Source: Eubacteriales bacterium | Lineage (GTDB): Bacteria > Bacillota > Clostridia > Oscillospirales > CAG-272 | Length of the DNA stretch: 64,000 nucleotides | NCBI GenBank assembly: GCA_045647805.1 | Contig: JAZRMT010000146.1 | Coordinates: 24 to 64,023 of the forward strand | Direction of reading: 5' to 3' | Part shown: one piece after another, positions 755-54,999 of the stretch | Numbering within the stretch: position 1 is the first letter of the stretch | Layout: each line of letters opens with the position of its first letter | Translations under genes and position numbers: made by a program | Notes under the pieces: model-generated | Told to the model about the DNA's origin: nothing | Database searches by the model: none | What the model saw: the letters and a program-made list of their open reading frames with translations, nothing else

Positions 755-3700
755 ATGAAGATGTCAAAATTACTTTTAATGCTTGTGGCTCTCTGCGTTT
801 CGCTGGCAATGCTTTTCTCGTGCCAATTTGTGAATACCGGAACGGGCAACAGCAACGATTCGTCGGACAATGACAAGGACGACGATAAAGATGATGACAA
901 GGACGACGGCAACACCGACGACAAAGACGACGGCAACACCGATGACAAGGACGACGGCAACACCGACGACAAGGACGACGGCAACACCGACGACAAGGAC
1001 GACGGCAACACCGATGACAAGGACGACGGCAACACCGACGACAAGGACGACGGCAACACCGATGACAAGGACGACGGCAATACCGATGACAAGGACGACG
1101 GCAATACTGAGGAGCCGGAAAACCTAATTTTTAATTTCGAATCTACCGCTCAAATTATTGTGGGCTCCGAAGTTGCATATGACGTAGGATTCACTCTGTT
1201 CGAGATGATGTATCCCATGATGCTCTATCCTCCTCAAATTAAAGATGACACTGTGGAAAAGATTACCCATGAGATAGTAATTGGCGAGTGTGATAGAGAT
1301 ATTTCCAAGCTTGCGTACAGATATCTTGAAAGACGTCTTGATGATGAGAAAGCAGAGTATGACGGATATCTTATCTATTCAGACGGCTCCTCGGTGGCAA
1401 TTGCTTTTACCGAGGATAAGTATGGGCTAAGCATGGCTGCATATATGGCGTTTGAGAAGATCGAGTCTTACATTGATGATTACGCCCTCTGCCTTGAGGA
1501 TGGATTCGTTGATTACTTCTCCTTTAATGCTTATGAATATCAGAAGCAGATCGATCAGCTTACCGTTGACAAGCAGTGGCAGGAGCTTGCAGAGGAACTG
1601 GGAGAGCACGGTGAGGCTATCGTCGGAGCCTTCAAGGATATGTACGGTATGTACTCGATAGATATGATCTATTGGTACGCAAACCTTTACGATCCTGCTA
1701 TCGGAGGATATTACTACTCTAATTCCGGACGCGATACCGAGGGCTATCTTCCCGATATTGAGTCTACTGCTCAGGCGCTCAATGCCATAACCACCTCGGG
1801 CATGGTGTCGAGCTTTGCTAAGAATTATGCCGGTGCAATTCCCGAATGGATGAAGGAGCAGATCATATGCTTTACAAAATCTCTCCAGCATCCCGGCGGT
1901 TATTTCTATCATCCGCAATGGGGAAAGGAATTCACCGATTCCAAGGTTTCCAGAAGAGCAAGAGATCTTGGTAATGCTACCAGCGTGCTTTACGCTCTAG
2001 GCTCTGCTCCTACTTATAACACTCCCAAGGGCGATATAGGTGACGGAATACTTCCCGACGGATCAAAGGTCTCTGCGACGAGCATCTCGCTTACCGAACG
2101 ATTCGGCTGCTCCGCGGTCACTGCAGTCTCCAAGGTTGTAGCTGTCAGCTCCTCGGCAGAGGTGCCCTACTTCCTGGTTGATGAGGCTGCTTTCCGAGCT
2201 TATCTTGATACTCTTGACATTGAAAATAATGCATATTCAATAGGTAACACAATGACTGCCCAGAAGGAACAGATATCAAACCGAGACAGTCAGATAGGAA
2301 CACCCGACAATCCCACGCCCTTGATGGACATACTTATTAATTGGTTCAACGAGCATCAGAATCCCGAGAGAGGATCCTGGGCTAACGAGGAGCAGCAGGG
2401 TACTTATAACGAGATCAACGCTATAATGAAGATCACCGGTGTTTACGGCGGTGCGGGCGTGCTTATGCCCAATTCAGACAAGGCTATCTGGATAGTCCTC
2501 GACGCTATCGGTTACCAGGAGACTCCCGGTGCGGTTGTTGACGTTTATAACACATGGTATGCGGCATCAAGACTTCTTCGCCACATGAGAGATTACGGTG
2601 ACGAGGAGGATAAGGCTCTTGCCGCTGAGGTTCTTGACGAGCTTCGTGCGAAGGCACCCGAGCTTATCAGAGATTCGGCAAAGAAGCTTTCTGTATTCAG
2701 AAAGACGGACGGTTCCTTCTCCTACACTCCCAACGCTTCGTCTGCCAATTCTCAGGGGTGTCCCGTAGCTGTGAAAGGAACAAATGAGGGCGACGTTAAC
2801 GCAACTGTAATATGCTCCTCGGACATTCTCGTTTATATTTACTCGGCTCTTAACGTTTCTGATCACAGTGTTCCGATATACACCTACGCAGATTGGCTCG
2901 AGTATAAGTATACTCTTGAAAACCTTAATCCTGTTATCAAGAATCCCGAGGTCACAATGGAAGAGCCCTACACATTTGACGAGGATGATGAGGGTGAATT
3001 CGATCACGATAGCATAACCGCATCACTCAAATCCGCAGAGAGCTACCTTGCGGTAGTGAAGGACACCGACCGTTCGGGCGAGGGCAATTATCTTGAGTTC
3101 TCTTCCTCGGTGGGAAAGGAATCGCTGCTCATCAGCTCGGGCGGCCTCGCATCCAGCAAGACCTGCTACGTTTTTGAGTCGGATATGTGCATCTACGAGG
3201 CAAGTGCAAACTATTCCATACAGATGTATATTACCGAGTGTTATATGATTTCGGTACGTGTGCAGAATGGAAAGCTGTCACTCATTGAGTCCACCTCTTC
3301 TTCTGCAAAGAAGTCCAGAGACACCGTTTTGGGACTTAATCCCGAATTCGGTGAGTGGTTCAATCTCAAAATAGAGTATTATGCAGGCTCTCAGGATACG
3401 ACTCGAATAAAGATTTATTATAATAATGAGCTTGTGGCTGTTACAGACGGCTTCTACGATGAGGAGTGCAATCGCTACACCACGGGTAACGCAACACCCG
3501 GAAGAATGTCTAACAGCTTCCAGATATACGTTCTCAACGGTGTCAAGGTTAAGATGGCTGTTGACAACGTAATATTCTATAAGAGCAACGATCCTTACGT
3601 TGCCGTGACAGATCCCGAGCTTTCTCCCAAGATCAATGTTGACCTTCCTCTTCCACTTGAAGGAATCGAGCTTTCGGGCGGTGAGTACTACAACAGCGAC

Positions 3701-5029
3701 AAGGAAGGTACAAGATACGACTTTACGGAAAAGCCCGACAAGGATCATCTTTACAACAAGAGCTACGATTCTAAAACCGGTAGCTCTACTGTCTCTGTTC
3801 CCATGATGAGCAAGGTGGCAAACGGAATTCTTTCACTGACCAACGCATCCAACTGGCAGGGTATCTGCTTTGGTGCTGATGAGCCGATAAAGGGTGAGCT
3901 TGGCGATCGTTACATCTTCGAGACCGACTTCGTATGGCTCGGCGGAATGCAGGATTCTGCAGATATAGGCGGCGGAGCGGCATTTATCGGCTTCCTCGGT
4001 GAGAACAGATCTACCGATAACACGCAGATGTATAGCTATGGCAATATGTCCTTCATCAAGAATAACACAGAGCAGATCAAGGTTTGCGGAGCAACTCTTG
4101 ATAAGGGGGTAAGCTATAACCTTAGATTTGTTTATCAGGTCGGCGGTTCTATAAAGCTTTACGTTAATGGTGAGCCTGCTAAGGTTGGTAAGATCTACGG
4201 AAGCAACCTTGTTTCCGGTGATGAGTATCAGGGATTCGGCTTCTATTTCAGAAAGTCCTTTATAGAAGAGATGTCCATTGTAATGGATAACATATACATC
4301 GGTTTTGAGAAGGGTGACGGTACGGTTGATCTTCCCGAGCCGGTTATAAAGCTTCCGGAAACTACCGTCAATCCCGACTCTTATTACAACACCGTATCCG
4401 ATGGAACTAAATATTCCTTCACGGATGGCAAGGATACTTACAGCATTTACGATAAGGATACAAACCCGAACGGATTCCTTTCCGGACCGCTTAACGAGGA
4501 GAGCCAGAAGAGCTATGACGAAGGCAAGGTAGTTTTCGATAACAAAGATATTCTTCTTGCTACCGCAGACAGCTGCTATGCGGGCATAAGCTTTGCTAAC
4601 AAAGGAAATACCGCAGGAACGAATAGCTCGGTTTACGTTTTTGAAACCGATTTCGCCTTTGTCGGCGGAACTCCTGGCTCGGATTGGAACGTAGCCTTTG
4701 TAGGCTTCTCAAGCGGCAATGAGACCAACCCCGATATGTTCGCTTACGGATATATGCAGTTTGCTGACGAAGAGGGAAGCGCTATCTACTTCTGGGGCAG
4801 CAGATTCGATAGGGGCGTCTGGTATAACCTCCGCTTCGAGTACGAGGTGTCCAGCGGTAAAGTTACACTTTTCGTTAACGGAGTAAATTCCGGTAATATG
4901 ACCACGAAGAGAGATTCGAACGGCAACTCCGATCCGCTTGTTTTTAACGGATTCGGCGTATATATCAGAAACAAGATGGCAGAGCCTCTTCAGCTGGCAT
5001 TCGACAATGTTTATATAGGTGTTAAATAA
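755..5029 (+). CDS. Giant lipoprotein A1 of the paralogous surface-protein family: lipobox signal peptide, acidic repeat stalk, conserved uncharacterised core, LamG-like C-terminal modules
   Basis: ATG at 755 lies 8 nt after GAGGAG (741-746). The track ORF starts at a TTG at 749. The N-terminus MKMSKLLLMLVALCVSLAMLFSC carries a lipobox Cys, followed by (DDKDDGNT)x9. Core motifs are LYDPAIGGYYYSNSGRDTEGYLPDIESTAQAL, LQHPGGYFYHPQWGKEF..SRRARD, DGSFSY..SQGCPVAV and NEGDVNAT. C-terminal modules resemble GEWFNLKIEYY...IKIYYNNELV...VDNVIFY. Confidence 0.93.
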   Translation: MKMSKLLLMLVALCVSLAMLFSCQFVNTGTGNSNDSSDNDKDDDKDDDKDDGNTDDKDDGNTDDKDDGNTDDKDDGNTDDKDDGNTDDKDDGNTDDKDDGNTDDKDDGNTDDKDDGNTEEPENLIFNFESTAQIIVGSEVAYDVGFTLFEMMYPMMLYPPQIKDDTVEKITHEIVIGECDRDISKLAYRYLERRLDDEKAEYDGYLIYSDGSSVAIAFTEDKYGLSMAAYMAFEKIESYIDDYALCLEDGFVDYFSFNAYEYQKQIDQLTVDKQWQELAEELGEHGEAIVGAFKDMYGMYSIDMIYWYANLYDPAIGGYYYSNSGRDTEGYLPDIESTAQALNAITTSGMVSSFAKNYAGAIPEWMKEQIICFTKSLQHPGGYFYHPQWGKEFTDSKVSRRARDLGNATSVLYALGSAPTYNTPKGDIGDGILPDGSKVSATSISLTERFGCSAVTAVSKVVAVSSSAEVPYFLVDEAAFRAYLDTLDIENNAYSIGNTMTAQKEQISNRDSQIGTPDNPTPLMDILINWFNEHQNPERGSWANEEQQGTYNEINAIMKITGVYGGAGVLMPNSDKAIWIVLDAIGYQETPGAVVDVYNTWYAASRLLRHMRDYGDEEDKALAAEVLDELRAKAPELIRDSAKKLSVFRKTDGSFSYTPNASSANSQGCPVAVKGTNEGDVNATVICSSDILVYIYSALNVSDHSVPIYTYADWLEYKYTLENLNPVIKNPEVTMEEPYTFDEDDEGEFDHDSITASLKSAESYLAVVKDTDRSGEGNYLEFSSSVGKESLLISSGGLASSKTCYVFESDMCIYEASANYSIQMYITECYMISVRVQNGKLSLIESTSSSAKKSRDTVLGLNPEFGEWFNLKIEYYAGSQDTTRIKIYYNNELVAVTDGFYDEECNRYTTGNATPGRMSNSFQIYVLNGVKVKMAVDNVIFYKSNDPYVAVTDPELSPKINVDLPLPLEGIELSGGEYYNSDKEGTRYDFTEKPDKDHLYNKSYDSKTGSSTVSVPMMSKVANGILSLTNASNWQGICFGADEPIKGELGDRYIFETDFVWLGGMQDSADIGGGAAFIGFLGENRSTDNTQMYSYGNMSFIKNNTEQIKVCGATLDKGVSYNLRFVYQVGGSIKLYVNGEPAKVGKIYGSNLVSGDEYQGFGFYFRKSFIEEMSIVMDNIYIGFEKGDGTVDLPEPVIKLPETTVNPDSYYNTVSDGTKYSFTDGKDTYSIYDKDTNPNGFLSGPLNEESQKSYDEGKVVFDNKDILLATADSCYAGISFANKGNTAGTNSSVYVFETDFAFVGGTPGSDWNVAFVGFSSGNETNPDMFAYGYMQFADEEGSAIYFWGSRFDRGVWYNLRFEYEVSSGKVTLFVNGVNSGNMTTKRDSNGNSDPLVFNGFGVYIRNKMAEPLQLAFDNVYIGVK
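893..1108 (+). repeat. Nine in-frame copies of a 24-bp tandem repeat (GAYGACAARGACGACGGCAAYACY) encoding DDKDDGNT
   Basis: Read directly from the sequence. Copies differ only at synonymous third positions. They create the antisense and out-of-frame shadow ORFs 718-1104 and 870-1127. Confidence 0.95.
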
Positions 5030-5037
5030 TTTCGAAA

Positions 5038-6426
5038 ATGAACGAACTGAACACATTAAGAGAAGAAAGATATAAGGCTATCGCCGACCGAGTCGGCGGT
5101 AGCACGGGTGAGAAAATAGTAGAGGCGTTAAGAGACCTTTATGAAATGTTTGACGAATCAATGATCGATTGGTTCGCAGGTCTTTACGATCCGAAGGTTG
5201 GCGGCTGGTATTATTCAAACGGAGCGAAGGATCTTGAGACGGTGACCTATCAAGGGGTGACCTATCCTCTTTTGCCGGATATTGAATCGACCGAGCAGTC
5301 ACTTCGCTTTATCAACAGCTCAGGTCTTACTTGCGGCAAGGGATATCAGGATGTTCTTCCCGATAGGATGAAGGCGGATATTGCAAGATATCTTAAGGGG
5401 CTTCAGGACGAGGGCGGCTTCTTCTATAATCCGCAGTGGGGGAAGGAATACACCGATAAAAAGCTCTCAAGAAGAGCGAGGGACCTCGGTGCATCGGTAA
5501 GTGTGCTTTGCGCACTCGGTTATGCTCCCACGTATGACACTCCCACGGGTGAGAAGGGCGATTATAAGCTCTTCGACGGTACTCCCGTGGAAAAAAGGGG
5601 CACAAAGATATCCGAGGGAGACAATGCTGACGTATCCTCCGCCGGAATAGAGATTCCGGAGAATATGCGTGATAAGCAGGCGTTCCTCGATTATCTCGAC
5701 ACGCTTAATATCAAAACGGGTGCCTACTCGGTGGGAAATACCCTCACGGCACAGAAGCGGCAGATAATCTTTCGTGACGAGCAGCTGAAGGCCGAGGGGG
5801 CCGATTACTCGCTCATGGAAATACTTATCAATTGGCTTAACGAGAATCAGAATCCCGAGAACGGACTCTGGAATCCCGAGGCGAATTATTACGGAATAAA
5901 CGGACTGATGAAGGTGTCCGGCGTATACGGTGCGGCAGGCGTTCTTCTTCCTAATGCACAGAAGGCTGCTTTGGCGGCAATTGATGCCATGAACACCGAT
6001 CAGGAGGCGGGAGCGGTCACCGACGTGTATAACACCTGGTTTGCCGCTGAGAGAGTTCTTCGCCATATCAGAACCTTTGGCGGTGAGGACGGAACCGTGC
6101 TTTCCGCAAAGCTTCTTGAGGGACTGCGTGAGAAGGCACCGGAGGGACTCAGAGCTACCAAGAAAAAGCTACTCGATTTTAAAAAGGAGTCCGGCTCCTT
6201 CTCCTATTGCCGTAACACCAGCTCGGCACGTTCTCAGGGCTGTCCTGTAACCCACGAGGGTATGGCAGAGGGGGATGTAAACGCCACTATCATCTGTTCT
6301 TCGGATATTCTTAATTACGTTTATGCATCTCTCGGCTTATCGGACATTAAGGTTCCGATATTCGGTGAGAGGGAAATGAAACGGTATATTGAGATAGTTG
6401 AGGATAATTACTCTAAGATGAAATAA
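5038..6426 (+). CDS. Leaderless stand-alone copy (S) of the family core domain, predicted cytoplasmic
   Basis: ATG lies 8 nt after the A1 stop and no terminator intervenes. There is no signal peptide (MNELNTLREERYKAIADRVGG...). It carries every core motif: LYDPKVGGWYYSNG...LLPDIESTEQSL, LQDEGGFFYNPQWGKEY..SRRARD, SGSFSY..SQGCPVT, AEGDVNAT. Confidence 0.9.
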   Translation: MNELNTLREERYKAIADRVGGSTGEKIVEALRDLYEMFDESMIDWFAGLYDPKVGGWYYSNGAKDLETVTYQGVTYPLLPDIESTEQSLRFINSSGLTCGKGYQDVLPDRMKADIARYLKGLQDEGGFFYNPQWGKEYTDKKLSRRARDLGASVSVLCALGYAPTYDTPTGEKGDYKLFDGTPVEKRGTKISEGDNADVSSAGIEIPENMRDKQAFLDYLDTLNIKTGAYSVGNTLTAQKRQIIFRDEQLKAEGADYSLMEILINWLNENQNPENGLWNPEANYYGINGLMKVSGVYGAAGVLLPNAQKAALAAIDAMNTDQEAGAVTDVYNTWFAAERVLRHIRTFGGEDGTVLSAKLLEGLREKAPEGLRATKKKLLDFKKESGSFSYCRNTSSARSQGCPVTHEGMAEGDVNATIICSSDILNYVYASLGLSDIKVPIFGEREMKRYIEIVEDNYSKMK

Positions 6427-6430: not shown

Positions 6431-6480
6431 GCCGGGGCAGTCTCAAATTTTGCATTTGAGACTGCCCCGCTTCTTTTTTT
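6431..6480. terminator. Bidirectional rho-independent terminator between S and the convergent gene
   Basis: GGGGCAGTCTCAAA (6434-6447) pairs with TTTGAGACTGCCCC (6455-6468). An A-run lies upstream and a T-run downstream. Confidence 0.85.
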
Positions 6481-9547: not shown

Positions 9548-9648
9548 CCCATAAATTACAGATGTAAAGATGAATTTTTCTCTTTCTGCGGGGTTGCAAT
9601 TATTTTGGCTTTATGGTATACTGAATAGGAAGATTTTTGGGCGACGAA

Positions 9649-11622: not shown

Positions 11623-11629
11623 TAGATTT

Positions 11630-11671
11630 AGCCACAATATGCAAACTACTATTTGCATATTGTGGCTTTTA
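11630..11671 (+). terminator. Rho-independent terminator after the hydrolase gene
   Basis: AGCCACAATATGCAAA pairs with TTTGCATATTGTGGCT and is followed by a T-rich tail. Confidence 0.75.
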
Positions 11672-11696
11672 TCTCTGAAAATATAAAAAACAATAA

Positions 11697-11741
11697 AGAA
11701 AAAGTGCTTATGATGCTTGCTGCATCATAAGCACTTTTTGC
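11697..11741. terminator. Bidirectional terminator, serving the minus-strand PC4-like gene
   Basis: AAAGTGCTTATGATGC pairs with GCATCATAAGCACTTT. It is flanked by an A-run and a T-run. Confidence 0.75.
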
Positions 11742-11762
11742 ACCGATGTTTGCCAAACTCAA

Positions 11763-11987
11763 TTAGTCGAGGTTGAGCTTGTTAAGCATATCGCGAAGAA
11801 CCTTTGCCTCTTCGGCAGAGATGGTGATACCCTTACCCATCTTCTCATGATCAGGAGACCATGTGCGGATGTCATAAACGGGCTCTCTCTCGTTCCAGCT
11901 GATAAGGTTAAGCTCCTTGTTCCAGCCGTTGTTGCCTTCGCTTACGATGCCGATCTTGTCTACTACTTCATACTTGATCTCAGGCAT
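11763..11987 (-). CDS. YdbC/PC4-like single-stranded DNA-binding small protein
   Basis: AAGGAG RBS. The 74-aa product contains GWNKELNLISWNEREPVYDIRTWSPDHEKMGKGITIS, which matches my recollection of the bacterial PC4-like YdbC family. Confidence 0.75.
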   Translation of the reverse strand: MPEIKYEVVDKIGIVSEGNNGWNKELNLISWNEREPVYDIRTWSPDHEKMGKGITISAEEAKVLRDMLNKLNLD

Positions 11988-13309: not shown

Positions 13310-13337
13310 TCTGCCGCCTATATTAGAGTAAAAATAG

Positions 13338-13410
13338 AAAAGAGCGATTGATTTAAAATGCGTGCCAAAGCCGTCTTGCTTTGGTGGGTTTCATATCAAT
13401 CGCTCTTTTT
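13338..13410. terminator. Compound hairpin between convergent genes, probably a bidirectional terminator
   Basis: Outer stem AAAAGAGCGATTGAT pairs with ATCAATCGCTCTTTT. An inner hairpin pairs CCAAAGC with GCTTTGG. Confidence 0.5.
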
Positions 13411-13419
13411 ATTAATGAA

Positions 13420-14904: not shown

Positions 14905-14931
14905 GGTTCCGTTCCTTTCAGGTAAATATGC

Positions 14932-30166: not shown

Positions 30167-30197
30167 GGCTCGGGCGAGAAATCGCCCGAGCTTTTTG
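30167..30197 (+). terminator. Rho-independent terminator of B1
   Basis: GGCTCGGGCGA pairs with TCGCCCGAGC and is followed by TTTTT. Confidence 0.85.
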
Positions 30198-36710: not shown

Positions 36711-36719
36711 TTTTGGCTA

Positions 36720-39595: not shown

Positions 39596-39955
39596 TTGTC
39601 AGTAAAATGTGCTTGGCATGTCGGTCAAGTTCGTTTTGTATTATGCGGTGTGCCTTTAATCTTATATAGTGCTGTGAGCAGCACGCTCATACCCGCTTAC
39701 CTGACCTTCAGCGGAGCAAGCACGACCTCGACAGTGGACGGAGTTCTTGAATCAAGACTTAAGGTGTTTGTTGATGACGAGCTTTTGTACGTTACCGACC
39801 TTCGTCTTGAGGATAAGGTGTTCAGCGAGATAAGAATGGTCACGCTTAACGCACTTATTGCTACGGTTGGCGTAATATACGTGGATAACCTCAGCTTTGT
39901 GCAGTCTATTGCAGAGTATGACGGATTACCTGTTACTCACACGATTGTTGAATAA
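39596..39955 (+). pseudogene. 5'-truncated remnant of a family paralogue (last LamG-like module only)
   Basis: The ending LKVFVDDELLYVTD...VIYVDNLSFVQSIAEYDGLPVTHTIVE* aligns with the A3 C-terminus TKVFINDELLFVSD...TMYIDNLSFKESTVEYDGSELTYNLD*. It has no signal peptide, no ATG with an RBS, and no upstream domains. Confidence 0.55.
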
Positions 39956-45240: not shown

Positions 45241-48200
45241 ATGAAGAGATTAGTTCTACTACTTGTTATTATATTTGTTATGGCGCTTTGCTTGCCCTCT
45301 TGCACAGTTTACTCCGGTTCGGACGAGGATAGCTCCGATAAGGACAAGGATAACGGCTCGGAGGATGGAGACTCCGACAAGAATGATGATGAAGACGATA
45401 AGAATGACAATAGCGGTGTTGACGATGATGACGACGGTAGTACTGATGACGACGGTAGTACCGATGACGACGGTAGTACCGATGACGACGGTAGTACCGA
45501 TGACGATGGCAGTACCGATGACGATGGCAGTACCGATGACGACGGCAGTACCGATGACGACGGCAGTACCGATGACGACGGCAGTACCGACGGTGGGGAA
45601 GAGGATGATGATAAACCCACGGGTGGCAAGGATAAGCCTGAAAATTACATATACGGTGCTGACGAGGTCTTTTATATCGTTTACAATCCCCTCGATATAT
45701 CCGACTATAACGTTAACCGCCTGGCTGATGCCTTTTTTGACAAGGGCATTATGGTAGAGCTTTGCAGTTACACTTCCGCTCCTCATGATCACGAGCTGGT
45801 TATAGGTGACGTGGGAAGAACGGTATCGGATGATGCGTATATGCATCTTGGAAGAGTGGATAAAAACAGCGACAGTGATATGAGATTCTGTATTTATTCC
45901 TCGGGCTCCTCTATTGCTATCGCTTACGAAAAGGATGAAGAGGGCCTTTGCTCGGATGCGGCTGTTGATAATTTTATAGAAAATTACGTCAGAGAAAGCC
46001 TTGCGGTTGGCAAGGGAAGTCTTGTTGCCGAATCCTTTGACCTATACGTTTATCTTGAAGAGAGGGATCTTGCCTCCTATCAGGAGAGATGGGCGAAGGT
46101 TGCCGCTTATGCAGGTGCGAGCGGTGCAGAGATCGTTTCCGCTCTTCAGTCTCTCTATACCATCTATGACGGAGAGGGGCTGGTTTCCTGGATGGCAAAC
46201 CTTTACGATCCCGATATATGCGTGTGTAAAAATCTCTACGGTGAAGCGGAGTGCAGCAACACTCAATGGTGCCATACGGGCGGATTTTATTTTTCCAACA
46301 GTGCCCGCGATACTATCGGCTTCCTTCCCGACGTGGAGTCGACGAATCAGATATTGAAGTTTATCGATAGCTCGGGAATTCTGACGGGTATCGGTGACAG
46401 TTACGATGACCTTCTTCCCGGTGATGTCAACGAGGCAATAAAGAACTTTGCTTACAATCTTCAGAGCCCTGACGGATATTTCTATCATCCACAGTGGGGA
46501 ACGGCTATCGGAACCTCCCGAAGAGCCCGTGACTATAACTGGAGCATAAGCATACTGAATAATTACGGAGTTACTCCGAAATACAAGACGATTAACGACG
46601 TGCCCTCGGAGAATCAGGTTTCCTTTGAGTTCCTGCCTGCAAGGCTCGGAACATCTACCGTGTCTATGGTTTCCAAGGTCATCGCCGCCGAGAGCGAGAC
46701 TCTGATTCCCGATCACCTTAAGACTGTTGAAGCCTTTAGGCAATATCTTATTGATCTTGATATTCCGAACAATTCATATTCGGCGGGTAATACACTCTCC
46801 GCTCAGTCCTCTCAGATCAATTCGAGGGGAAGTGAATACAAAACTGTTCTTATGGAGCATCTTAACGCCTGCCAGAATGAAAATGGAACATGGAGAGACG
46901 TTTTGGACTACGACGCCATAAACGGCGTTATGAAGATTTCCGGAGTATATTCGGCCTTCAAAACTCCTATTCCCAATGCTGAGAAGGCTTGCCGTGCTGC
47001 TTTTGCGGCGGTCAGCTCGGATGAATCCTGCGGAAGTATTGTTGATATCTGGAACGCATGGGAGGCGCTTGACCGTGTGTTAATTAACATAAGAACTCAC
47101 GGAGAAATAGGCCTTGATGCACAGATCGTCAACGACATTCTCCCGGATGCGGCACAGGCGATCCGTGATACGAGAGATAAGCTTGTTACATTCCGTAAGA
47201 ATGACGGCTCCTTCGTATATCAGGCGAGCGGCAAGACCTCCGGTATTTCTATGGGCGCTCAGGTTTCTGTTGCAGGCACCGACGAGGGCGACGTTAACGC
47301 TACGATTATCGGCAGCTCCTCTATGGTAAAGTCTATTTTCCATTGCCTCAAACTTGGTACTGCGGTTCCTATCGCACTGACCAAGGAAAGGACGGTGTTC
47401 CGAGATATAATCGGTAACATAAGCCCGGTAATCAAAACCGGTTCGTTAGATGAGGCGACCGCGCCTATCACCTTTGATTATTACGATGAGGGCGATATAC
47501 CCTCCGAGGTTCGAATTTTCAGCAAAGGAAACAGTCAAATAGTTGCGGACGAGAGGGACGAGGAGAGCAAGGTTCTTCTCTTCAACAGTATTGTCGGAGG
47601 CGGTGATTACTTCAAGCTTAATACGGCGGGCTATAAGGCGAGTGCTACCGGTCTTGTATTCGAGAGCGAGTTCTGTTTTGATGCCTCGTCCTCTAATCAT
47701 AAATCTCTTGTGAGGTTTGAGATGGGAGCCGACGGTGACGTTGATAATATTTACCGTCTTGCATTCGGTACGAGCGACGAGGGCGTTGAGATATGGGAGC
47801 ATTCCTCCTCTGCCTCCTCAAAGGACGTGTCAAATTATCTCGCTTCGGTAAAATACGGTCAGTGGTTCAAGCTGAAGGTGATTTACTACAAGGGCGATCA
47901 CAATACGGTAAGGATCAAGGTCTATCTTGACGATAAGCTCATTGCTATCAGTGACAACTACTACGACAAGGAGGGCGTAAAGCTTAACGGAGAGGGAACA
48001 CCCAATACAGGTCTTGATGAATGCCGCTTCTTCGTTTTGAAGGATTACGTACTTAACCTTTACATCGATAATATAAGATCTTACTACACGAAGAAAAACT
48101 ATGCCTACGAGCCTCTTCATGAGGATTACCGCTATCTTCCTACGTCTATTAACGTGGACGAGATTTCAAAAGACGGCGTGATCTACGATATGGAGGAGCT

Positions 48201-50043
48201 TGAAGCCGGAGAAAATTATCCCGATGCCTTTGCGGTAAATGCGAACGGCGGCACTGCCGAGGTTATCCTTGAGGGAGAGGGAAAAATGCTTCGTCTTTCT
48301 GACGGATCTGCGGTGGTTATTCCTACGGTGAAGCGTTCTGCCGCAGTCAATTGCGATTCGGTAGGAATAGACGTTCTGGTCAAGAATGCTGCCGAGGGAG
48401 AAATCGGAAATATATCTCTCTTAGAAAGAAATAGGACGGACGAATGCATTTTAGGCTTTACTCTTAATGTAGTGACCGATGGCGAGGACAGCTATATTAT
48501 TCTGGTTGACGGCTCGGGAGAGACCGTCGAGGGCGTGCGGCTCCCTGTAGGGAAGAGAAGCAGCCTTCGCATTGATTATTATCCCTCCGAGGGAGTTGCG
48601 ATCATTTATGTAAACGGCGAAAGACGGGGCTTGTGCCTTTCTCAGAACGGTTCAAAGCTTACCTTTGGTAAGGCTGTGATATCCTCCGATGCCTCCTGCG
48701 AATTGCTTATAGACGATATCTTCGTTGAGCGTTATGCAGGCGACTATGAAAAGGCAATGGCACCGAAATACGACGGTGTGGTATATGATTTCACCGACGG
48801 TATTCACGAGAGCATTACTGTTACCGGCAGCGGCATTTCTGTTGACTCGGTATCGGGTGAGAGCGTCCTTAAGCTGTCGGGATCAAAGGCATCCTATTCT
48901 GAGGCGAAGATACCCGTAAATCCCAGAGACGATGCTATGAGCTGTACGGAGCTTGGCTTCGATATAAGCTATCTTAATACCAAAAATAACGGTGTTGCTC
49001 AAAGAATCATATTTGCCGATGAAGAGGGCAGAAGAATAATATCCTTTGCTCTGACAGTGAAGGACGGTGTTGTCGGAATATCCGAAGAGACCTCCTTTGG
49101 CATTCACTCACCTATGGCAGAGTTCTCATCCTCGGAAAAGGTCAACATCAGATTCGAGTTCTATGAGAACAGGGGCATATGCAAGGTGTTCGTTAACTCG
49201 GAATACGCCTTCGTAAGCTCACTTACGTACTCCGAGAAAAACAAGGAGCTTACCCCTGCGTATGCTATCCTTTCTTCGGGTGAGGTCGGTTCTACCGCTT
49301 TTATAGACAATATTATCTTTGACAGATACGATAAGCTCTATATTGCCGAGCCCTCGATTGGTAACAAGGAGGACGGTGCCCCGGAGTTCAGCTTTAATTA
49401 CAGCGGAGGCACAAATTATCCGAGTGGAATAAAGCATGATATCAACTCGGGCGCTCCCGTTCCGTCGGTCGTTGAGATATCGAAGGACGGAAAGGCAGAC
49501 AAGGTGCTGAAATTCCAAAGCTATAAGAATTCCTCTAATATGGATGATCTTATTTTGCAGACCACCGAATCGGTTGAGAACTGTAAATCCTACGTGCTTT
49601 GTGCCGATCTTATGCTCAATAATTGCTCGGGCGGCACAGCGTTCTATCAGCTGCATCTCAGAAACGGTACGGCGGGAGTAGTAGAGCTCACCCTGGCTAA
49701 GGAGAACGATGCTTTGGTAATCTACCAGAAGGACTATATAAACAACGTAAACGGTAAAAAAATTGTTATCGGATCATTTGGAGAATGGTTTAATCTCCGT
49801 GTTGAGTATTATCCCACAGAGGTGGGAGGAGTCGCTTCTGTCAGAACCAAGGTGTTCATTAACGACGAGCTGCTTTTCGTTTCGGATTATGTTTGTAAGA
49901 ACGTGAGCGGTGCTCCCGAAATCACATCGGCGTGCTTCAAGGCTCTTAAGGCTCCCGAAAGCACGATGTATATTGATAACCTTAGCTTTAAGGAATCGAC
50001 AGTAGAATACGACGGCTCTGAGCTGACCTATAACTTAGATTAA
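45241..50043 (+). CDS. Giant lipoprotein A3 of the paralogous family
   Basis: The start is moved to ATG 45241 (MKRLVLLLVIIFVMALCLPSC, lipobox), which follows AAAGGA. The track start at 45181 would lie at the predicted transcription start. The architecture and motifs match A2: LYDPDICVCKNLYGEAECSNTQWCHTGGFYFSNSARDTIGFLPDVESTNQ, LQSPDGYFYHPQWG..SRRARD and DEGDVNAT. Confidence 0.92.
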   Translation: MKRLVLLLVIIFVMALCLPSCTVYSGSDEDSSDKDKDNGSEDGDSDKNDDEDDKNDNSGVDDDDDGSTDDDGSTDDDGSTDDDGSTDDDGSTDDDGSTDDDGSTDDDGSTDDDGSTDGGEEDDDKPTGGKDKPENYIYGADEVFYIVYNPLDISDYNVNRLADAFFDKGIMVELCSYTSAPHDHELVIGDVGRTVSDDAYMHLGRVDKNSDSDMRFCIYSSGSSIAIAYEKDEEGLCSDAAVDNFIENYVRESLAVGKGSLVAESFDLYVYLEERDLASYQERWAKVAAYAGASGAEIVSALQSLYTIYDGEGLVSWMANLYDPDICVCKNLYGEAECSNTQWCHTGGFYFSNSARDTIGFLPDVESTNQILKFIDSSGILTGIGDSYDDLLPGDVNEAIKNFAYNLQSPDGYFYHPQWGTAIGTSRRARDYNWSISILNNYGVTPKYKTINDVPSENQVSFEFLPARLGTSTVSMVSKVIAAESETLIPDHLKTVEAFRQYLIDLDIPNNSYSAGNTLSAQSSQINSRGSEYKTVLMEHLNACQNENGTWRDVLDYDAINGVMKISGVYSAFKTPIPNAEKACRAAFAAVSSDESCGSIVDIWNAWEALDRVLINIRTHGEIGLDAQIVNDILPDAAQAIRDTRDKLVTFRKNDGSFVYQASGKTSGISMGAQVSVAGTDEGDVNATIIGSSSMVKSIFHCLKLGTAVPIALTKERTVFRDIIGNISPVIKTGSLDEATAPITFDYYDEGDIPSEVRIFSKGNSQIVADERDEESKVLLFNSIVGGGDYFKLNTAGYKASATGLVFESEFCFDASSSNHKSLVRFEMGADGDVDNIYRLAFGTSDEGVEIWEHSSSASSKDVSNYLASVKYGQWFKLKVIYYKGDHNTVRIKVYLDDKLIAISDNYYDKEGVKLNGEGTPNTGLDECRFFVLKDYVLNLYIDNIRSYYTKKNYAYEPLHEDYRYLPTSINVDEISKDGVIYDMEELEAGENYPDAFAVNANGGTAEVILEGEGKMLRLSDGSAVVIPTVKRSAAVNCDSVGIDVLVKNAAEGEIGNISLLERNRTDECILGFTLNVVTDGEDSYIILVDGSGETVEGVRLPVGKRSSLRIDYYPSEGVAIIYVNGERRGLCLSQNGSKLTFGKAVISSDASCELLIDDIFVERYAGDYEKAMAPKYDGVVYDFTDGIHESITVTGSGISVDSVSGESVLKLSGSKASYSEAKIPVNPRDDAMSCTELGFDISYLNTKNNGVAQRIIFADEEGRRIISFALTVKDGVVGISEETSFGIHSPMAEFSSSEKVNIRFEFYENRGICKVFVNSEYAFVSSLTYSEKNKELTPAYAILSSGEVGSTAFIDNIIFDRYDKLYIAEPSIGNKEDGAPEFSFNYSGGTNYPSGIKHDINSGAPVPSVVEISKDGKADKVLKFQSYKNSSNMDDLILQTTESVENCKSYVLCADLMLNNCSGGTAFYQLHLRNGTAGVVELTLAKENDALVIYQKDYINNVNGKKIVIGSFGEWFNLRVEYYPTEVGGVASVRTKVFINDELLFVSDYVCKNVSGAPEITSACFKALKAPESTMYIDNLSFKESTVEYDGSELTYNLD
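45427..45588 (+). repeat. Nine in-frame copies of an 18-bp tandem repeat (GATGACGAYGGYAGTACY) encoding DDDGST
   Basis: Read directly from the sequence. It generates the shadow ORFs 45259-45846, 45263-45757 and 45309-45629. Confidence 0.95.
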
Positions 50044-50154: not shown

Positions 50155-53100
50155 ATGAAAAAACTAGCACTGCTGCTGGTCCTTCTCTTCCTTATTGGAG
50201 CTTGCTTTACCGCTTGCGGTCTGCCTATGGTGGGAACCGACAACAATAACGGAAGCTCGGACAAGGACGACAAGGACGACAAGGACGACAAAGACGACAA
50301 AGACGACAAGGACGACAAGGACGACAAAGACGACAAGGACGACAAGGACGACAAGGATGACAGCGGCGACGATCCCGATGGCGGTGATGATCCTGCTGAC
50401 GGTGACGATCCCGATGGCGGCGATGATCCCGATGGCGGCGATGATCCCGATGGCGGCAACGATCCCGATGGCGGCAACGATCCCGATGGCGGTGATGATC
50501 CCGATGGCGGCGATGATCCCGATGGCGGTGATGATCCCGATGGCGGCGATGATCCTGATGGCGGTGAAGATCCCGATGGCGGCGATGATCCCGATGGTGG
50601 TGACGATCCCGATAGCGGTGACAATCCCGATAGCGGTGACGATCCCGAAAATCTCATATATAATATTAGCTCGGAGCTTTATTATGTTTATCCCGACGAT
50701 CTTGTGGATACATATGTGAACGCAATTCCTAACGAGCTTCTGAATAACGGAATTTATATCAGAACAGATCCGGAAAGCGATGATCCTCATACTCATGAGA
50801 TAGTTATAGGAAAATGCAACCGTCAGGTGTCGAAGACCGCATACGACCGTCTTGACAGAATCGATGTTTCCAAGGATGGGGATATCAGAGTGTTGATCTA
50901 TTCCGACGGATCTTCGATATGCATTGCTTACGACGAGGATATTATTAACTTCGGTCTGGAAACGGTTTTGAATTACTTCATGGAGAACTATTGCTCCGAG
51001 GAGCTGGTTGCCGCACCCGGTGTGCTTTACAGCGAGAAGGTCAATCTGTACGACCGTCTTGCAGAGATAGATTTGGAAAAGTACAGCACCCAGTGGCAGA
51101 AGCTTGCAAAGGATTACAGTCCTGAGGTAGTTGCGGCTCTGCGCTCTTACTATTCGATATACGACGGTGAGAAGCTTATGACCTGGCTGGTCAACCTCTA
51201 CGATCCCTCTATTTGCGTTTGTAAGGGACTTTACGGAGAGGCTGAGTGCTCTGAAACTCAGTGGTGCGGTACCGGAGGCTTCTATTTCTCAAATTCCGCG
51301 AGAGACACGGTGGGCTATCTTCCCGACGTTGAGTCCACGCTCCAGGCACTCGGACTTCTTGCCGCACTTGGAATGGGAGGCTCCTACGTCAGCCTTCTTC
51401 CCGAATGGGTAGGCGAGGGAATTGCAAACTTTACATATAACCTCCAGGATCCCGACGGCTTCTTCTATCATCCTCAGTGGGGGAAGAGTATCGCGGTTTC
51501 CAGAAGAGCGCGTGATTTTAACTGGTCAAGAAACATTTTGGATGCCTACGGCATAAAGAGCAAATATCCTATGATGGATGACGTGGAGGCGGTTTCCGCA
51601 TCATCGTTGCCCACTATGATGGGAAATTCGACGGTGAGCGCGGTTTCCAAGGTTATCGCAGCCGACGGTGAGCTTCTTATTCCCGATCATCTTAAGACAC
51701 TCGACGCCTTTAAGGATTATCTTGAGAACACCCTCAACTTCTACACCAATGCTTACAGTGCGGGTAACACGCTCGGTTCACAGTCCGTACAGATAAAATC
51801 CAGGGGTCAGGAATACGTAGACGCTATGTTTGAGCATCTGAACAAGACCCAGAGAGATAACGGCTTGTGGCATGCCACACCCGGTTATTACGCTATCAAC
51901 GGACTTATGAAGATATCCGGCATATACAAGTCCTTCGAGGTAGAGATACCCAACGCGGAGGCTGCCTGCCTTGCCTGCTTTGACGCTATTATGTCCGACG
52001 AGAATCCCTCGGGTATCGTTGATATCTGGAACGCTTGGGTTGCTATAACCTACGTTTTCGAAAACGTAAGGCTCTACGCCGATAACGGCGTTGAGAAGGA
52101 GGCGGAACTCAAAGCTAACCTGGTCGCGAACTCCGTTGGCGCGATAAACGCCACCCGTGACAAGACTGTCAAGTTCGTAAGAGATGACGGTTCTTATTCC
52201 TACGTACAGACCGGCAACTGTACTGCTTCTCAGGGGGCTCCCGTTGCGGTTCCCGGTTATTCCGAGGGTGACGTTAACGGATGTATGATAGCTACTACTC
52301 AGATGATAGGCTTCGTATTCTCAGGTCTTGGCATGAATGGCTATAAGGTGGATCTTTGCGGAGAACGAGAACGGGTTATTATGCTCGAGATGTTTGAAAA
52401 TCTCTCGCCTGTTGAGAAGATCAGCGGCGACGGCTCCGTCGTTGGCGAGCCGATTGATTTCGATTACGATGACCTGGGCGACATTCCCGAGGAGGTCACA
52501 TACTCCTTCCCGAATGCCGAGGCGTCAAGCAGTGTCATGGTAATAGAGGATCCCAGAGAGGGAAGCGATGGCAACGTTCTCTCCTTTAAGACCGACGCTA
52601 AGAGCTTTGACAGCATAAGCTTCAAGAACAACGGTGGCTCGGCAGGAGCTCTCTGCTCGGTATTTGAGGCTGAGATGTGTCTTGCTTCCGCTTCCGCCGC
52701 CACCGATTTCCTCCGTATAGAAATGGGACAGAGCAGTGACACCTCCGGTGTGTACCGAATTACCTTTAGGCCCAGCGACGGAAAAATATATCTGTACGAT
52801 AATTCCTCCTCCCAGGGCACTGTGAGCATGGTTAACAATCTCGGAGTTGCCGTTGAGGAGGGCGAGTGGTTCAAGATCCGCATAGAGTTCTATCCCGGCG
52901 AGGGCACAGAGGACACGGTAAGAGCTAAGGTCTACTTCAATGATAAGCTTATTTCGATAAGCGATAATTACTACGACTATTACGGAAAGAAGATCAATGG
53001 TATAGGTAAGCCCAATACTACCGCTAGCCTTACCAAGATTCAGTTCCTTACCGATCCCACCGCAGAGGTACTGCTTGATAACGTTCACGCATTCTATGAT

Positions 53101-54999
53101 AAGAAGGCTTATGCCTTCGAGGAGCTTCACGAGGATTACGCAAGCGATCCTTATGCGGTAAACGTTGATAAGCTGCATGAGATGGCTCCCGTTTACGGCT
53201 TCGAGGAGCTTGAGCTTGGCGAGAATTATCCCGATATCTTTACCGTTACGGGCGGTTCAGGTTCCGCCTTGATCACTGCACTCGGCGAGGGCAAGGGGCT
53301 CACACTTTCCGGCGGAGCTAAGGTCAACGTTCCCGCTGCGAGAACCGAGAGCTTTACCAATTGTGCTATAATAGCAATGGATATTCTCGTTGACGAGAGT
53401 GCAAGCGGTACGGTAGGCTCGATAGCTCTTCTTCAGCATAACAAGCCCTCGAGCACTATAAACACCTTCACCCTTAAGGTGAACAATATCAACGGCGAGA
53501 AGGTTATAAATATTACCGAAGCCGCAAAGGGCTCTACTATTGCGGGAGTTGCGCTGCCTCTCGGTGAGGTAGTTAATCTCAAAATCGAATATTATTACAG
53601 AGACAGTATTATTCTCTTCTACGTTGACGGAGAGCTTATAGGCATGAGTGCCGAGTTTACTGCTGCCTCGAGACTGCAGGTGTTTGATGACGTACTTATT
53701 ACCGGTACGGGAACGATTACCGTCGATAACGTAACGGTTGACCACGGAAATAAAGATTATACAACGACGATGACACCGAAGTATGACAGCGTTGTTCACG
53801 ACTTCGAGAGCGGACTTGGCAGTATTGTCACAAAGGGCAACGGTGTCAGCGTGAAGGCGGACGGCTCGGGCTCTTGCTTGGAGATAACTCCCACCACAAC
53901 CTCCACCGTTACCGTACCTCTCAATCCCAGAGATGATCTGATGAGCGTGAGTGTTATTGAGCTTGACGTAAAGTTTACCAACGTAACCAAGATGGGAAGT
54001 CATATTATCTCGATCACGGACGCAGACGGAAATAAGATATTCGCTCTTTCTTTAACTCAGTCCAAGGGTGTTGCTTATTTGTACGAGCGTACCGCACTCG
54101 GAACTCACGCGGCGGCGATAACGGAGTTTAAGGCTGTGGATGGCGCTAAGCTATCTCTTGAGCTTTATGAAACTCTTGGAGTGTGCAAGGTATTCCTTAA
54201 CGGTGAGTACGTCTTCTCGAGCGCTCTTATGTATAGTGCGGTGAATGCCGCTCTTACACCTGATTCTTTGGTTATTGAGTCGGTTTCCGCCGCACCGGGC
54301 ATCAGGATAGACAACGTTGTCTTTGACCGTTACAGAAAGGCATACCTTAAGGATGGTGCGATAGGCAACAAGGAGGATGGCGCGGAGGAGATCACCTTCG
54401 GATACAGCGGAGGAAACGATTATCCCTCCGGCATCGTCGCTGATATCAAGACAGCCGCTCCTCTTCCCGCTGTAAATGAGATGATTAAGGACGGAGTCCT
54501 TGATAAGGTGCTTAGATACGACACTGTTCCCGGTGGCGGAGACGAGCTTAAGATCACTCAGACCGCGTCTGTAACCGGTGAGGTATCCTACGTTTTCAAG
54601 TCGGAGATCATGTTCCCCGAGGGAAGCAACGCTCCCTTCCAGATCTACGTTTGCGACGCCGGAGGAACCGGAATGATCACTATATATTACCTTGAGGTAT
54701 CCGGTGGTAAGATCTATATGTATACCAGAGATACCAACCACAAGGATAGCGAGAGGGTAGAGATAGGAAATCTCGGAGAGTGGATCGACTTGCGAATCGA
54801 GTATTACCTTGTCGATGGCACACCTAAGCTTAAGGCATTCGTTTCCGACGAATTTATTCTTGAAAGCGGAGCAGAGTATCCGAGAAGCAATATGTCTAAG
54901 ATCGGAGCGGTTAAGTTCTATGGTCTTTCCGGCGGAAACGGCACCATGTATATTGATAACGTTAGCCTTAAGGGCAGTACCGCTACCTATACTCCGTAA
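50155..54999 (+). CDS. Giant lipoprotein A4 of the paralogous family
   Basis: The N-terminus MKKLALLLVLLFLIGACFTAC is nearly identical to the A2 signal peptide. A long acidic repeat stalk and the junction DDPENLIYNIS follow. Motifs are LYDPSICVCKGLYGEAECSETQWCGTGGFYFSNSARDTVGYLPDVESTLQAL, LQDPDGFFYHPQWGK..SRRARD, DGSYSY..SQGAPVAV and SEGDVNGC. Confidence 0.93.
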   Translation: MKKLALLLVLLFLIGACFTACGLPMVGTDNNNGSSDKDDKDDKDDKDDKDDKDDKDDKDDKDDKDDKDDSGDDPDGGDDPADGDDPDGGDDPDGGDDPDGGNDPDGGNDPDGGDDPDGGDDPDGGDDPDGGDDPDGGEDPDGGDDPDGGDDPDSGDNPDSGDDPENLIYNISSELYYVYPDDLVDTYVNAIPNELLNNGIYIRTDPESDDPHTHEIVIGKCNRQVSKTAYDRLDRIDVSKDGDIRVLIYSDGSSICIAYDEDIINFGLETVLNYFMENYCSEELVAAPGVLYSEKVNLYDRLAEIDLEKYSTQWQKLAKDYSPEVVAALRSYYSIYDGEKLMTWLVNLYDPSICVCKGLYGEAECSETQWCGTGGFYFSNSARDTVGYLPDVESTLQALGLLAALGMGGSYVSLLPEWVGEGIANFTYNLQDPDGFFYHPQWGKSIAVSRRARDFNWSRNILDAYGIKSKYPMMDDVEAVSASSLPTMMGNSTVSAVSKVIAADGELLIPDHLKTLDAFKDYLENTLNFYTNAYSAGNTLGSQSVQIKSRGQEYVDAMFEHLNKTQRDNGLWHATPGYYAINGLMKISGIYKSFEVEIPNAEAACLACFDAIMSDENPSGIVDIWNAWVAITYVFENVRLYADNGVEKEAELKANLVANSVGAINATRDKTVKFVRDDGSYSYVQTGNCTASQGAPVAVPGYSEGDVNGCMIATTQMIGFVFSGLGMNGYKVDLCGERERVIMLEMFENLSPVEKISGDGSVVGEPIDFDYDDLGDIPEEVTYSFPNAEASSSVMVIEDPREGSDGNVLSFKTDAKSFDSISFKNNGGSAGALCSVFEAEMCLASASAATDFLRIEMGQSSDTSGVYRITFRPSDGKIYLYDNSSSQGTVSMVNNLGVAVEEGEWFKIRIEFYPGEGTEDTVRAKVYFNDKLISISDNYYDYYGKKINGIGKPNTTASLTKIQFLTDPTAEVLLDNVHAFYDKKAYAFEELHEDYASDPYAVNVDKLHEMAPVYGFEELELGENYPDIFTVTGGSGSALITALGEGKGLTLSGGAKVNVPAARTESFTNCAIIAMDILVDESASGTVGSIALLQHNKPSSTINTFTLKVNNINGEKVINITEAAKGSTIAGVALPLGEVVNLKIEYYYRDSIILFYVDGELIGMSAEFTAASRLQVFDDVLITGTGTITVDNVTVDHGNKDYTTTMTPKYDSVVHDFESGLGSIVTKGNGVSVKADGSGSCLEITPTTTSTVTVPLNPRDDLMSVSVIELDVKFTNVTKMGSHIISITDADGNKIFALSLTQSKGVAYLYERTALGTHAAAITEFKAVDGAKLSLELYETLGVCKVFLNGEYVFSSALMYSAVNAALTPDSLVIESVSAAPGIRIDNVVFDRYRKAYLKDGAIGNKEDGAEEITFGYSGGNDYPSGIVADIKTAAPLPAVNEMIKDGVLDKVLRYDTVPGGGDELKITQTASVTGEVSYVFKSEIMFPEGSNAPFQIYVCDAGGTGMITIYYLEVSGGKIYMYTRDTNHKDSERVEIGNLGEWIDLRIEYYLVDGTPKLKAFVSDEFILESGAEYPRSNMSKIGAVKFYGLSGGNGTMYIDNVSLKGSTATYTP
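50260..50646 (+). repeat. In-frame tandem repeats: about eleven 9-bp (DKD) units, then about sixteen 18-bp units encoding DDPDGG and variants
   Basis: Read directly from the sequence. It generates the shadow ORFs 50136-50657, 50164-50796 and 50195-50719. Confidence 0.95.

Follow-up and report, generated by a model that had tools for sequence, protein, structure and literature searches.

A possible undescribed carbohydrate-active protein family with a conserved toroid core, expanded in uncultured Clostridia

What is the role of seven paralogous genes that together fill just over half of a 64-kb stretch of clostridial DNA and share a core outside every characterised family? The stretch (hereafter the window) is the whole 64,000 nt analysed of contig JAZRMT010000146.1 (assembly GCA_045647805.1, Eubacteriales bacterium, Oscillospirales); positions of open reading frames (ORFs) are numbered within it. 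The seven genes, in order A1, S, B1, B2, A2, A3 and A4, lie on the + strand and add up to 34,128 nt (53% of the window). Four A-type and two B-type genes encode large multidomain proteins, and S encodes the core alone. At odds a little short of even (about 45%), they would represent an undescribed carbohydrate-active family, confined to a narrow group of uncultured gut Clostridia, whose core probably works as a hydrolase or lyase.

A common core of about 450 residues in seven + strand proteins had been proposed by a sequence-only reading of the window, and BLASTP, motifs and a core profile agree on it. All seven ORFs are open over the coordinates first proposed for them (Table 1; ORF listing and translation), and the profile, built from 52 homologues, picks exactly these seven among all ORFs of the window. 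By BLASTP, S is 49% identical to A1 (462 aa, E 7e-138) and 33-37% identical to A2, A3 and A4 (E 1e-73 to 7e-82). B1 and B2 are each matched by S in a pair of collinear segments, at E 1e-12 to 2e-17, because an insertion interrupts the B-type core (~200 aa in B1, ~50 aa or more in B2), at a site that corresponds to a variable, low-confidence loop in S. The motifs said to run in one order through all seven proteins do so overall, with small deviations in A2, S and A3: the exact LYDP is missing from A2, and DG[SG][FY]SY deviates in S and A3. PQWG/PHWG, SRR[AS]RD or R[RL]SRD, and EGDVN[AG][TC] are found in 7/7 cores. A tblastn search of the window yields a single fragment besides the seven, just upstream of A2 (39728-39946). 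It seems to be what is left of a paralogue that has decayed, and suggests gene turnover in the array.

The core was claimed to lie outside every characterised family, and Pfam, NCBIfam and PDB searches and the names of its homologues all bear this out. With all seven window proteins scanned, neither Pfam nor NCBIfam matches the core at E<0.01, and scans of the seven proteins, the A-type N-terminal domains and the B-type flanks matched only Laminin_G_3 and Flg_new_2. No meaningful sequence relative was found among PDB chains by phmmer with S and the 52-sequence profile. Against carbohydrate-active enzyme (CAZyme) families with toroid folds (GH15, GH88, GH105, GH8, GH9 and others), the core has no Pfam glycoside hydrolase (GH) match, and the PDB profile search was empty. 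Homologues from a collection of 5.8 billion proteins (396 and 578) are all unnamed or 'hypothetical protein', with essentially no precomputed Pfam domain over the core. A tblastn search of S against 72,556 plasmids gave no match, an exact look-up of S in a contig index gave no record, and the literature searches brought up no description of the core family.

The predicted fold, by contrast, can be placed in a broad class. The AlphaFold2 model of S, computed from the 52-sequence alignment, is confident (pLDDT 95.4, pTM 0.92) and all-helical, with ~15 helices linked by short hairpins. The top Foldseek matches of this model in the PDB are exclusively alpha/alpha toroids, all of them weak. The best is the class II terpene cyclase 8pak (E 1.8e-3, probability 0.99), joined by the terpene cyclases 6sbb, 7xqz and 6vpt and the beta subunit of Rab geranylgeranyltransferase (RabGGTase; 1dce_B). 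Glycosidases of families GH15 (2vn4), GH105 (4ce7), GH88 (4q88) and GH9 (1ks8) are matched at E 0.08-1.9, and complement C3 and C3d (8cem, 4rtd, 4m76) and transcobalamin are also listed, weakly. The TM-scores of the toroid matches are only 0.26-0.37; thus, the resemblance is at superfamily level. In sequence, PF00432 (Prenyltrans) appears below threshold in 9/52 members (best E 0.0026) and PF13243 (SQHop_cyclase_C) in 1/52 (E 0.0084); the window proteins give nothing at E<0.01 against PF00432, PF13243 and PF13249, and the family stays below the gathering thresholds. The core is built from hairpins with a GG-aromatic motif, each followed by a helix that opens with polar residues. Its motifs, GG[FWY]YYS...PDxESTxQAL, [DN]G[FY]FYHPQWG...SRRARD, ETGLW...NGLxK and DGSFSY...EGDVNAT, we take to be versions of the superfamily's repeat of a GGF hairpin and a D-x-x-T helix start. 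The model thus shows the core as an (alpha/alpha) toroid, predicted to be a distant relative of the six-hairpin superfamily of terpenoid cyclases and prenyltransferases; the confident all-helical model, the purely toroid top matches and the weak Prenyltrans hits support the fold proposed from the motifs.

A set of polar residues of this toroid is strongly conserved. Conservation was counted over 174 cores from 76 sources, with residues numbered as in S. Ten polar residues (D81, E83, R145, R148, D149, K292, N332, E411, D413 and N415) are at least 95% conserved, alongside many Tyr and Trp; 24 columns are invariant in the 52-sequence family alignment, and every alignable window copy retains these columns and the ten residues. 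In the S model the ten residues stand at the starts of helices after hairpins. The same helix-start position holds the cavity-lining catalytic residues of prenyltransferases and cyclases, and by this analogy the ten residues, on what would be the inner helices, may line the central funnel as one putative site.

The active sites of the known relatives were looked for in the same 174 cores and are not conserved. A class II terpene cyclase is ruled out, as DxDD(T) is not conserved (D.DD in 9/174, as by chance, and D.D[DE]T in 0/174); a conserved PD-x-ES-T stands at the equivalent of this motif. A prenyltransferase beta subunit or LanC-like cyclase is ruled out by the lack of conserved Zn ligands: no Cys column exceeds 53%, and the sole frequent His (89%) belongs to the YHPQW hairpin, where S has Asn instead. 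The thioester domain of alpha-2-macroglobulin and C3 is ruled out likewise, with CGEQ in 0/174 cores. Without a conserved DxDD(T), Cys/His set or CGEQ, the core is none of these three.

The large members also carry beta-rich modules that connect them to carbohydrates. In A1, Laminin_G_3 (PF13385) is matched with 29.5 bits in the whole protein and 33.2 bits in the C-terminal piece (cut-off 27.6). An AlphaFold2 model of A1 residues 125-1000 (pLDDT 88) places a jelly roll after the toroid, and this first jelly roll matches, at Foldseek probability 1.00, X122 (8q2a), a sialic-acid carbohydrate-binding module of family CBM40 (2w68), a PL20 glucuronan lyase (2zzj), PL7 alginate lyases (1vav) and the lectin-like Hc-N domain of botulinum neurotoxin. 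It also dominates the matches of a multi-domain A1 search. X122 is described in the literature as a domain of redox proteins. No Laminin_G_3 match exceeds the Pfam cut-off in A2-A4, B1 and B2; their modules are linked to those of A1 by BLASTP. On the A1 score and the jelly-roll matches, the earlier assignment of the C-terminal modules to the laminin G/concanavalin A (ConA) type stands. The signature offered for them, W[FY].[LV].[IV]EYY..., is looser than claimed: in strict form it occurs once in each of A1-A4 and 0 times in B1 and B2, and in relaxed form it is present in the A1 C-terminus, B1 and B2. The window modules thus share the fold of known ConA-like lectin and glucanase modules (PF13385, 8q2a, 2w68, 2zzj, 1vav) and differ in that a single one exceeds the Pfam cut-off, the others being too diverged.

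Around the core, the six large proteins (of seven) have a lipoprotein or Sec (general secretory) signal before it and ConA-like jelly rolls after it. A1 is composed of a signal peptide with a lipobox Cys, a spacer rich in D, K, G, N and T, an N-terminal alpha/beta domain, the toroid core and three ConA-like regions, and its ATG at 755 is preceded by the ribosome-binding site AGAGGAG. Signal peptides ending in a lipobox Cys (A1 LFSC, A2 FTAC, A3 LPSC, A4 FTAC), each followed by a low-complexity acidic spacer, mark A1-A4 as predicted lipoproteins. The alpha/beta domain of ~130 aa is conserved among A-type members and has no Pfam match in the Pfam and NCBIfam scans; in A1-A4 a long helix joins it to the core, and beta-rich modules follow the core. 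S has no signal peptide, cannot be extended upstream and is presumably cytoplasmic. The 8-nt gap between A1 and S and the terminator after S indicate a two-gene unit. Thus, surface display, as earlier assumed for the family, fits the large members with their lipobox or Sec signals and fails for S, so that the family is not purely surface-displayed.

The B-type proteins are larger. B1 is ordered as a Sec signal, a shared N-terminal module, Flg_new_2 repeats, the core with its ~200-aa insertion and a C-terminal region of ~1100 aa; the signals of B1 and B2, read from sequence, are of the Sec type without Cys. No Pfam hit covers the ~1,100 C-terminal residues of the B-type proteins. A terminator-like hairpin between the two genes suggests separate transcription units. 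The N-terminal head module (~260 aa) has no Pfam match; it also heads the cassette T proteins described below, an LRR_5 protein of the closest relative (L076, 1-2835, - strand) and Flg_new/cohesin proteins. A 'Rosetta-stone' fusion with the cassette T protein was rejected, as the module also heads LRR_5 and cohesin proteins; more probably, secreted proteins of this lineage share it as a generic head or anchor. Within the core insertion lies a Cys/His-rich stretch, CTSCHVCxHxLGHSY (B1 ~25744-25810, aa ~1090-1110; B2 ~32604-32670, aa ~772-792), which is absent from the A-type proteins and S and may be a metal site.

Beyond the window, a profile search of 1.84 billion representative proteins returned 1,370 clusters (50% identity) at E<=1e-3 and 1,222 at E<=1e-10; as judged by these sequences, the core family is sharply bounded. 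Among 185,579 species genomes, 304 matching stretches were found, and the best 80 of the 304 fall in only 12 metagenome-assembled genomes (MAGs), labelled Eubacteriales, Clostridia, Oscillospiraceae or 'Ruminococcus' and largely deer-gut, judging by record descriptions. Three MAGs hold at least 37, 27 and 22 distinct members, and the first of these encodes 36,200 aa of family protein. Lengths are bimodal: members that lack a signal peptide have ~405-506 aa, and those that start with a Sec or lipoprotein signal have 680-2,750 aa. Small and large forms are interleaved in a crude neighbour-joining tree; when each small member is checked for being the closest relative of the large member beside it, about half of the pairs come within the first 10 of 87 ranks, and the others lie at background.

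Gene neighbourhoods of relatives were surveyed by ORF calling and clustering in the 76 sources, where 52 distinct large members have enough flanking sequence. A recurrent cassette emerges, in the order AraC-family regulator, large member, small member and a third secreted protein, T (450-700 aa), which lacks the core and carries the family's jelly-roll modules. A small member is adjacent to 39/52 large members, T lies within three genes of 41/52 and both are present for 34/52; 29/52 have an AraC-family regulator no more than three genes away, and all cassette parts accompany 25/52. By sub-clustering, the regulators are mostly of the cupin type (AraC_binding), with a few of the PocR type. In some cassettes a GH4 gene lies between the small member and T, or a GH92 gene immediately precedes the large member; GH1, GH43 and GH39-like genes, a ROK kinase, a 2-keto-3-deoxy-6-phosphogluconate (KDPG) aldolase and a fusion of 2-keto-3-deoxygalactonokinase with BNR occur in or beside some cassettes, and a choloylglycine hydrolase gene abuts one. 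Fusions speak for carbohydrates as well. Across 28 diverse large members, Laminin_G_3 is found in 6, 3keto-disac_hyd in 3 and Alginate_lyase2 in 1, and PF14099, PF08787 or 3keto-disac_hyd modules occur in some homologues. An MHDDG...HSxTH domain, placed after the core and jelly rolls, is present in 7/28 (P0247, P0248, P0249, P0262, P0309, P0310 and P0322); the carbohydrate esterase (CE) family CE4 model Polysacc_deac_1 (PF01522; NodB motifs DD and H-S/T-x-x-H) matches five of these seven domains, three above the cut-off, and the domain is absent from all seven window proteins. The earlier statement that no regulator or glycosidase is linked to these genes is therefore true of the window and does not extend to relatives. 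The closest relative, L076, has an A1 orthologue ~70% identical over the aligned length and an S orthologue 81% identical, and retains the A1-S pair with downstream ArsP_2/Gfo synteny. L076 also has an extra gene of 1744 aa after S (11464-16698, - strand) that lacks the core and any Pfam hit.

Taken together, the ConA-like jelly rolls, the CE4 and lyase-type fusions, the GH and sugar-gene neighbours and the AraC regulators are the reason for linking the family to carbohydrates. In the mechanism that we propose, the large proteins would be tethered at the cell surface, A1-A4 through a lipid anchor and a long acidic spacer, and B1 and B2 would be placed there by a Sec signal and an N-terminal module common to other secreted proteins. 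The jelly rolls would hold a polysaccharide against the toroid, whose ten polar residues would make up the active site of a hydrolase or lyase that cleaves glycans, by analogy with the DxDD and Zn-ligand positions. S, co-transcribed with A1, would stay in the cytoplasm and treat fragments in the same way once they have been imported, and the expansion of paralogues would provide varied substrate specificities around one fixed catalytic centre. More tentative still is the further step that the toroid core founds a new glycan-cleaving GH or polysaccharide lyase (PL) family in CAZy and is the constant element of a lineage-specific system resembling a polysaccharide utilization locus (PUL). Several points weigh against the carbohydrate-active reading: (i) in the window the seven genes are accompanied by no GH, CE or regulator of their own, (ii) GH neighbours occur in a minority of cassettes only, and, the MAGs being related, some of this neighbourhood may be conserved synteny and not functional linkage, (iii) no sugar transporter is a conserved cassette neighbour in the 76 sources, though the model of a cytoplasmic paralogue needs one, (iv) structural matches to GH and PL families are weak (E 0.08-1.3, TM ~0.3), the nearest folds being terpene cyclases and not glycosidases, and (v) a common pocket for the invariant residues is a deduction from where they stand on the helices. 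A CAZyme-like or binding family, as first suggested, gains from the CE4 fusions and GH neighbours in relatives and remains unproven.

The toroid could instead be a non-catalytic module for glycan binding or adhesion, with the large proteins as adhesins or as glycan catchers that function like SusD or surface glycan-binding proteins (SGBPs), and catalysis left to fused or neighbouring CE4, GH4 and GH92 enzymes. Toroids of this superfamily are often binders, such as C3d and transcobalamin among the Foldseek matches; the recognised catalytic domains come separately, as CE4 fusions and GH neighbours; and the many lectin-like jelly rolls and Flg_new/InlB-type repeats are typical of surface binders. 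However, conservation of ten charged or polar residues at 95% or above over paralogues that are 30-35% identical is unusual for binders diversified in specificity, and a signal-less cytoplasmic paralogue, present in most cassettes, lacks an obvious capture role, so that this explanation is considered unlikely, if well worth keeping in mind. The conservation of the centre bears also on the idea that these are variable surface proteins without a metabolic substrate, expanded through interactions with host, phage or immunity (adhesion, antigenic diversity). Such an origin would suit the extreme copy number (in one MAG no fewer than 37 genes, encoding 36 kaa), the repetitive acidic spacers, the relic upstream of A2 and the surface-protein repeats. 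Yet about 40% of members are signal-less and cytoplasmic, the polar centre is invariant where diversification would be expected, and the AraC-type regulators and CAZyme partners point to nutrient-responsive metabolism; of the alternatives weighed here it has the slimmest chance.

Little more credit is given to a toroid that binds or transforms an isoprenoid, triterpenoid or steroid (plant saponin aglycones, bile acids or polyprenyl-linked intermediates), with the Arg/Lys cluster holding a phosphate or carboxylate; we regard this as very improbable. The best Foldseek matches are indeed class II terpene cyclases and RabGGTase beta, the weak Prenyltrans and SQHop_cyclase_C matches are consistent with them, and R145, R146, R148 and K292, together with the aromatics, recall what is generally known of prenyltransferase diphosphate sites. 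The choloylglycine hydrolase gene beside one cassette would fit a steroid, and the GH neighbours could deglycosylate saponins. By contrast, neither DxDD(T) nor Cys or His for Zn is conserved, the conserved positions are mainly charged or polar and not hydrophobic, the fusion partners are carbohydrate-type modules, and dozens of extracellular copies per genome are ill-suited to terpenoid chemistry in strict anaerobes.

Set beside known systems, the family shares with the terpenoid cyclase/prenyltransferase superfamily (PF00432, PF13243; 8pak, 6sbb, 7xqz, 1dce_B) the GG-aromatic hairpin followed by a D/E-x-x-T/S-like helix start, and differs in being mostly secreted or at the surface, fused to lectin-like modules and devoid of DxDD(T) or an Asp/Cys/His Zn site. 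With the (alpha/alpha)6 glycosidases (GH15, GH105, GH88, GH9) it has in common the toroid combined with a beta-sandwich, extra- and intracellular paralogues, helix-start carboxylates and a CAZyme context; there is, however, no relation at the sequence level, and the catalytic residues cannot be equated. The thioester domains of alpha-2-macroglobulin and C3d are likewise superfamily toroids in secreted proteins, distinguished by the CGEQ that is absent here. The PULs of Bacteroidota and Gram-positive bacteria resemble the cassettes in their many regulator-linked units, surface lipoproteins and sometimes differing accessory GHs, a likeness in which only gene order is known for the present family. 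The cassettes lack a SusC/SusD pair or conserved ABC transporter, and their constant element is instead the surface/cytoplasmic toroid pair with a secreted jelly-roll protein. Multimodular surface proteins of a CAZyme-like kind are known already, and so is the class of fold. New, as far as the libraries and literature searched extend, are the family, its invariant centre, the surface/cytoplasmic pairing in a regulator-linked cassette and the extreme lineage-specific expansion.

Within the window (Table 1), the A1-S unit comes without a T gene, and B1-B2 and A2-A3-A4 form tandem arrays with housekeeping genes around them. A single AraC gene is present (56969-57943, - strand), divergent from a rhaBAD-like operon; its cupin-AraC sensor domain groups with the regulators found beside family cassettes elsewhere. 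The Gfo/Idh/MocA and xylose-isomerase-like families encoded between A1-S and B1 also recur near cassettes of relatives (clusters 21 and 16). Scans of all 64 kb detected neither a tRNA nor, at threshold, an Rfam family; the Rfam scan was blank even ahead of the metY/metA-like genes (37147-39472), a place where one could look for a riboswitch or T-box. Two 84-nt repeats 113 nt apart (61541-61737) and a 221-nt direct repeat of 2.3 copies that are 88-95% identical (61834-62350) lie downstream of the aldolase gene and overlap only unannotated ORFs. The 7-nt unit TAGTGAA is repeated perfectly in tandem (6.1 copies, 19338-19380) between genes, upstream of a P-type ATPase gene.

Table 1. Coordinates of the family genes, their parts and neighbouring features in the 64,000-nt window.
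Feature	Position (nt)	Strand	Description and basis
A1	755..5029	+	Predicted lipoprotein, 1424 aa; ORF, translation, ribosome-binding site
A1 spacer repeat	870..1104	+	24-nt tandem repeat, 9.8 copies; encodes acidic DDKDDGNT spacer; Tandem Repeats Finder
A1 N-terminal alpha/beta domain	1127..1525	+	aa 125-257; motif HEIVIGxxxR...YSDGSS
A1 toroid core	1568..2923	+	aa 272-723; BLASTP to S E 7e-138, invariant columns kept
A1 first ConA-like beta jelly roll	2984..3586	+	aa ~744-944; AlphaFold2 strands, Foldseek probability 1.00
A1 C-terminal Laminin_G_3 (ConA-like) match	4688..4942	+	aa 1312-1396; Pfam PF13385
S	5038..6426	+	462 aa, core alone; begins 8 nt past the A1 stop codon
Bidirectional terminator-like hairpin	6433..6469	.	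Strong, 16-bp stem, downstream of S
Gfo/Idh/MocA oxidoreductase	8353-9399		Between A1-S and B1
Beta-lactamase-fold gene	9637-11622	+	Between A1-S and B1
Xylose-isomerase-like TIM barrel	12290-13309		Between A1-S and B1
Beta-lactamase-fold gene	13420-14904	-	Between A1-S and B1
B1	22477..30126	+	2549 aa
B1 N-terminal module	22480..23256	+	aa ~2-260; 11 T proteins matched by BLASTP, E 1e-9 to 1e-17
B1 Flg_new_2 (InlB B-repeat-like) repeats	23764..24276	+	Pfam PF18998, E 1.7e-11, 5 stretches
B1 toroid core	24982..26721	+	aa 836-1415; split by insertion carrying CTSCHVCKHSLGHSY
Terminator-like hairpin between B1 and B2	30167..30192	+	Hairpin search
B2	30291..36710	+	2139 aa; B1-like architecture, 47-48% identity over most of length
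B2 N-terminal module	30396-31331	+	Counterpart of B1 head module
B2 toroid core	31866..33365	+	aa ~526-1025
Terminator-like hairpin after B2	36719-36750	+	Hairpin search
Apparent relic	39728..39946	+	74 aa, 40% identical to A3 C-terminal jelly roll; tblastn E 1e-9
A2	40201..44946	+	Predicted lipoprotein, 1581 aa; core aa 246-697 (nt 40936-42291)
A2 spacer array	40307-40497	+	Analogous to that of A1; Tandem Repeats Finder, translation
A3	45241..50043	+	Predicted lipoprotein, 1600 aa; core aa 281-724 (nt 46081-47412)
A3 spacer array	45427-45590	+	Analogous to that of A1; Tandem Repeats Finder, translation
A4	50155..54999	+	Predicted lipoprotein, 1614 aa; core aa 300-749 (nt 51052-52401)
A4 spacer array	50260-50648	+	Analogous to that of A1; Tandem Repeats Finder, translation
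Rhamnose-type operon	56969-61532 region	+	FGGY kinase 58112-59425, RhaA 59426-60670, class II aldolase 60723-61532

If the toroid is catalytic, the family would be a new group of CAZymes, with ~1,400 sequence clusters invisible to current annotation pipelines, and abundant uncultured Clostridia of ruminant and animal guts would devote several per cent of their genome to foraging for glycans, in one MAG no less than 109 kb. Should it further prove to found a new GH or PL family, each genome would hold dozens of AraC-controlled cassettes in which a giant surface enzyme is joined by its cytoplasmic paralogue and by a lectin-like protein that is secreted, and polysaccharide harvesting would be organised unlike Sus-like systems and cellulosomes. 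The paired surface and cytoplasmic paralogues in a regulator-linked cassette form a concrete, testable unit, in which S is small, soluble and confidently folded. Even if the toroid only binds ligands, a large block of the 'dark' surface proteome of these bacteria would have a conserved, mutable centre.

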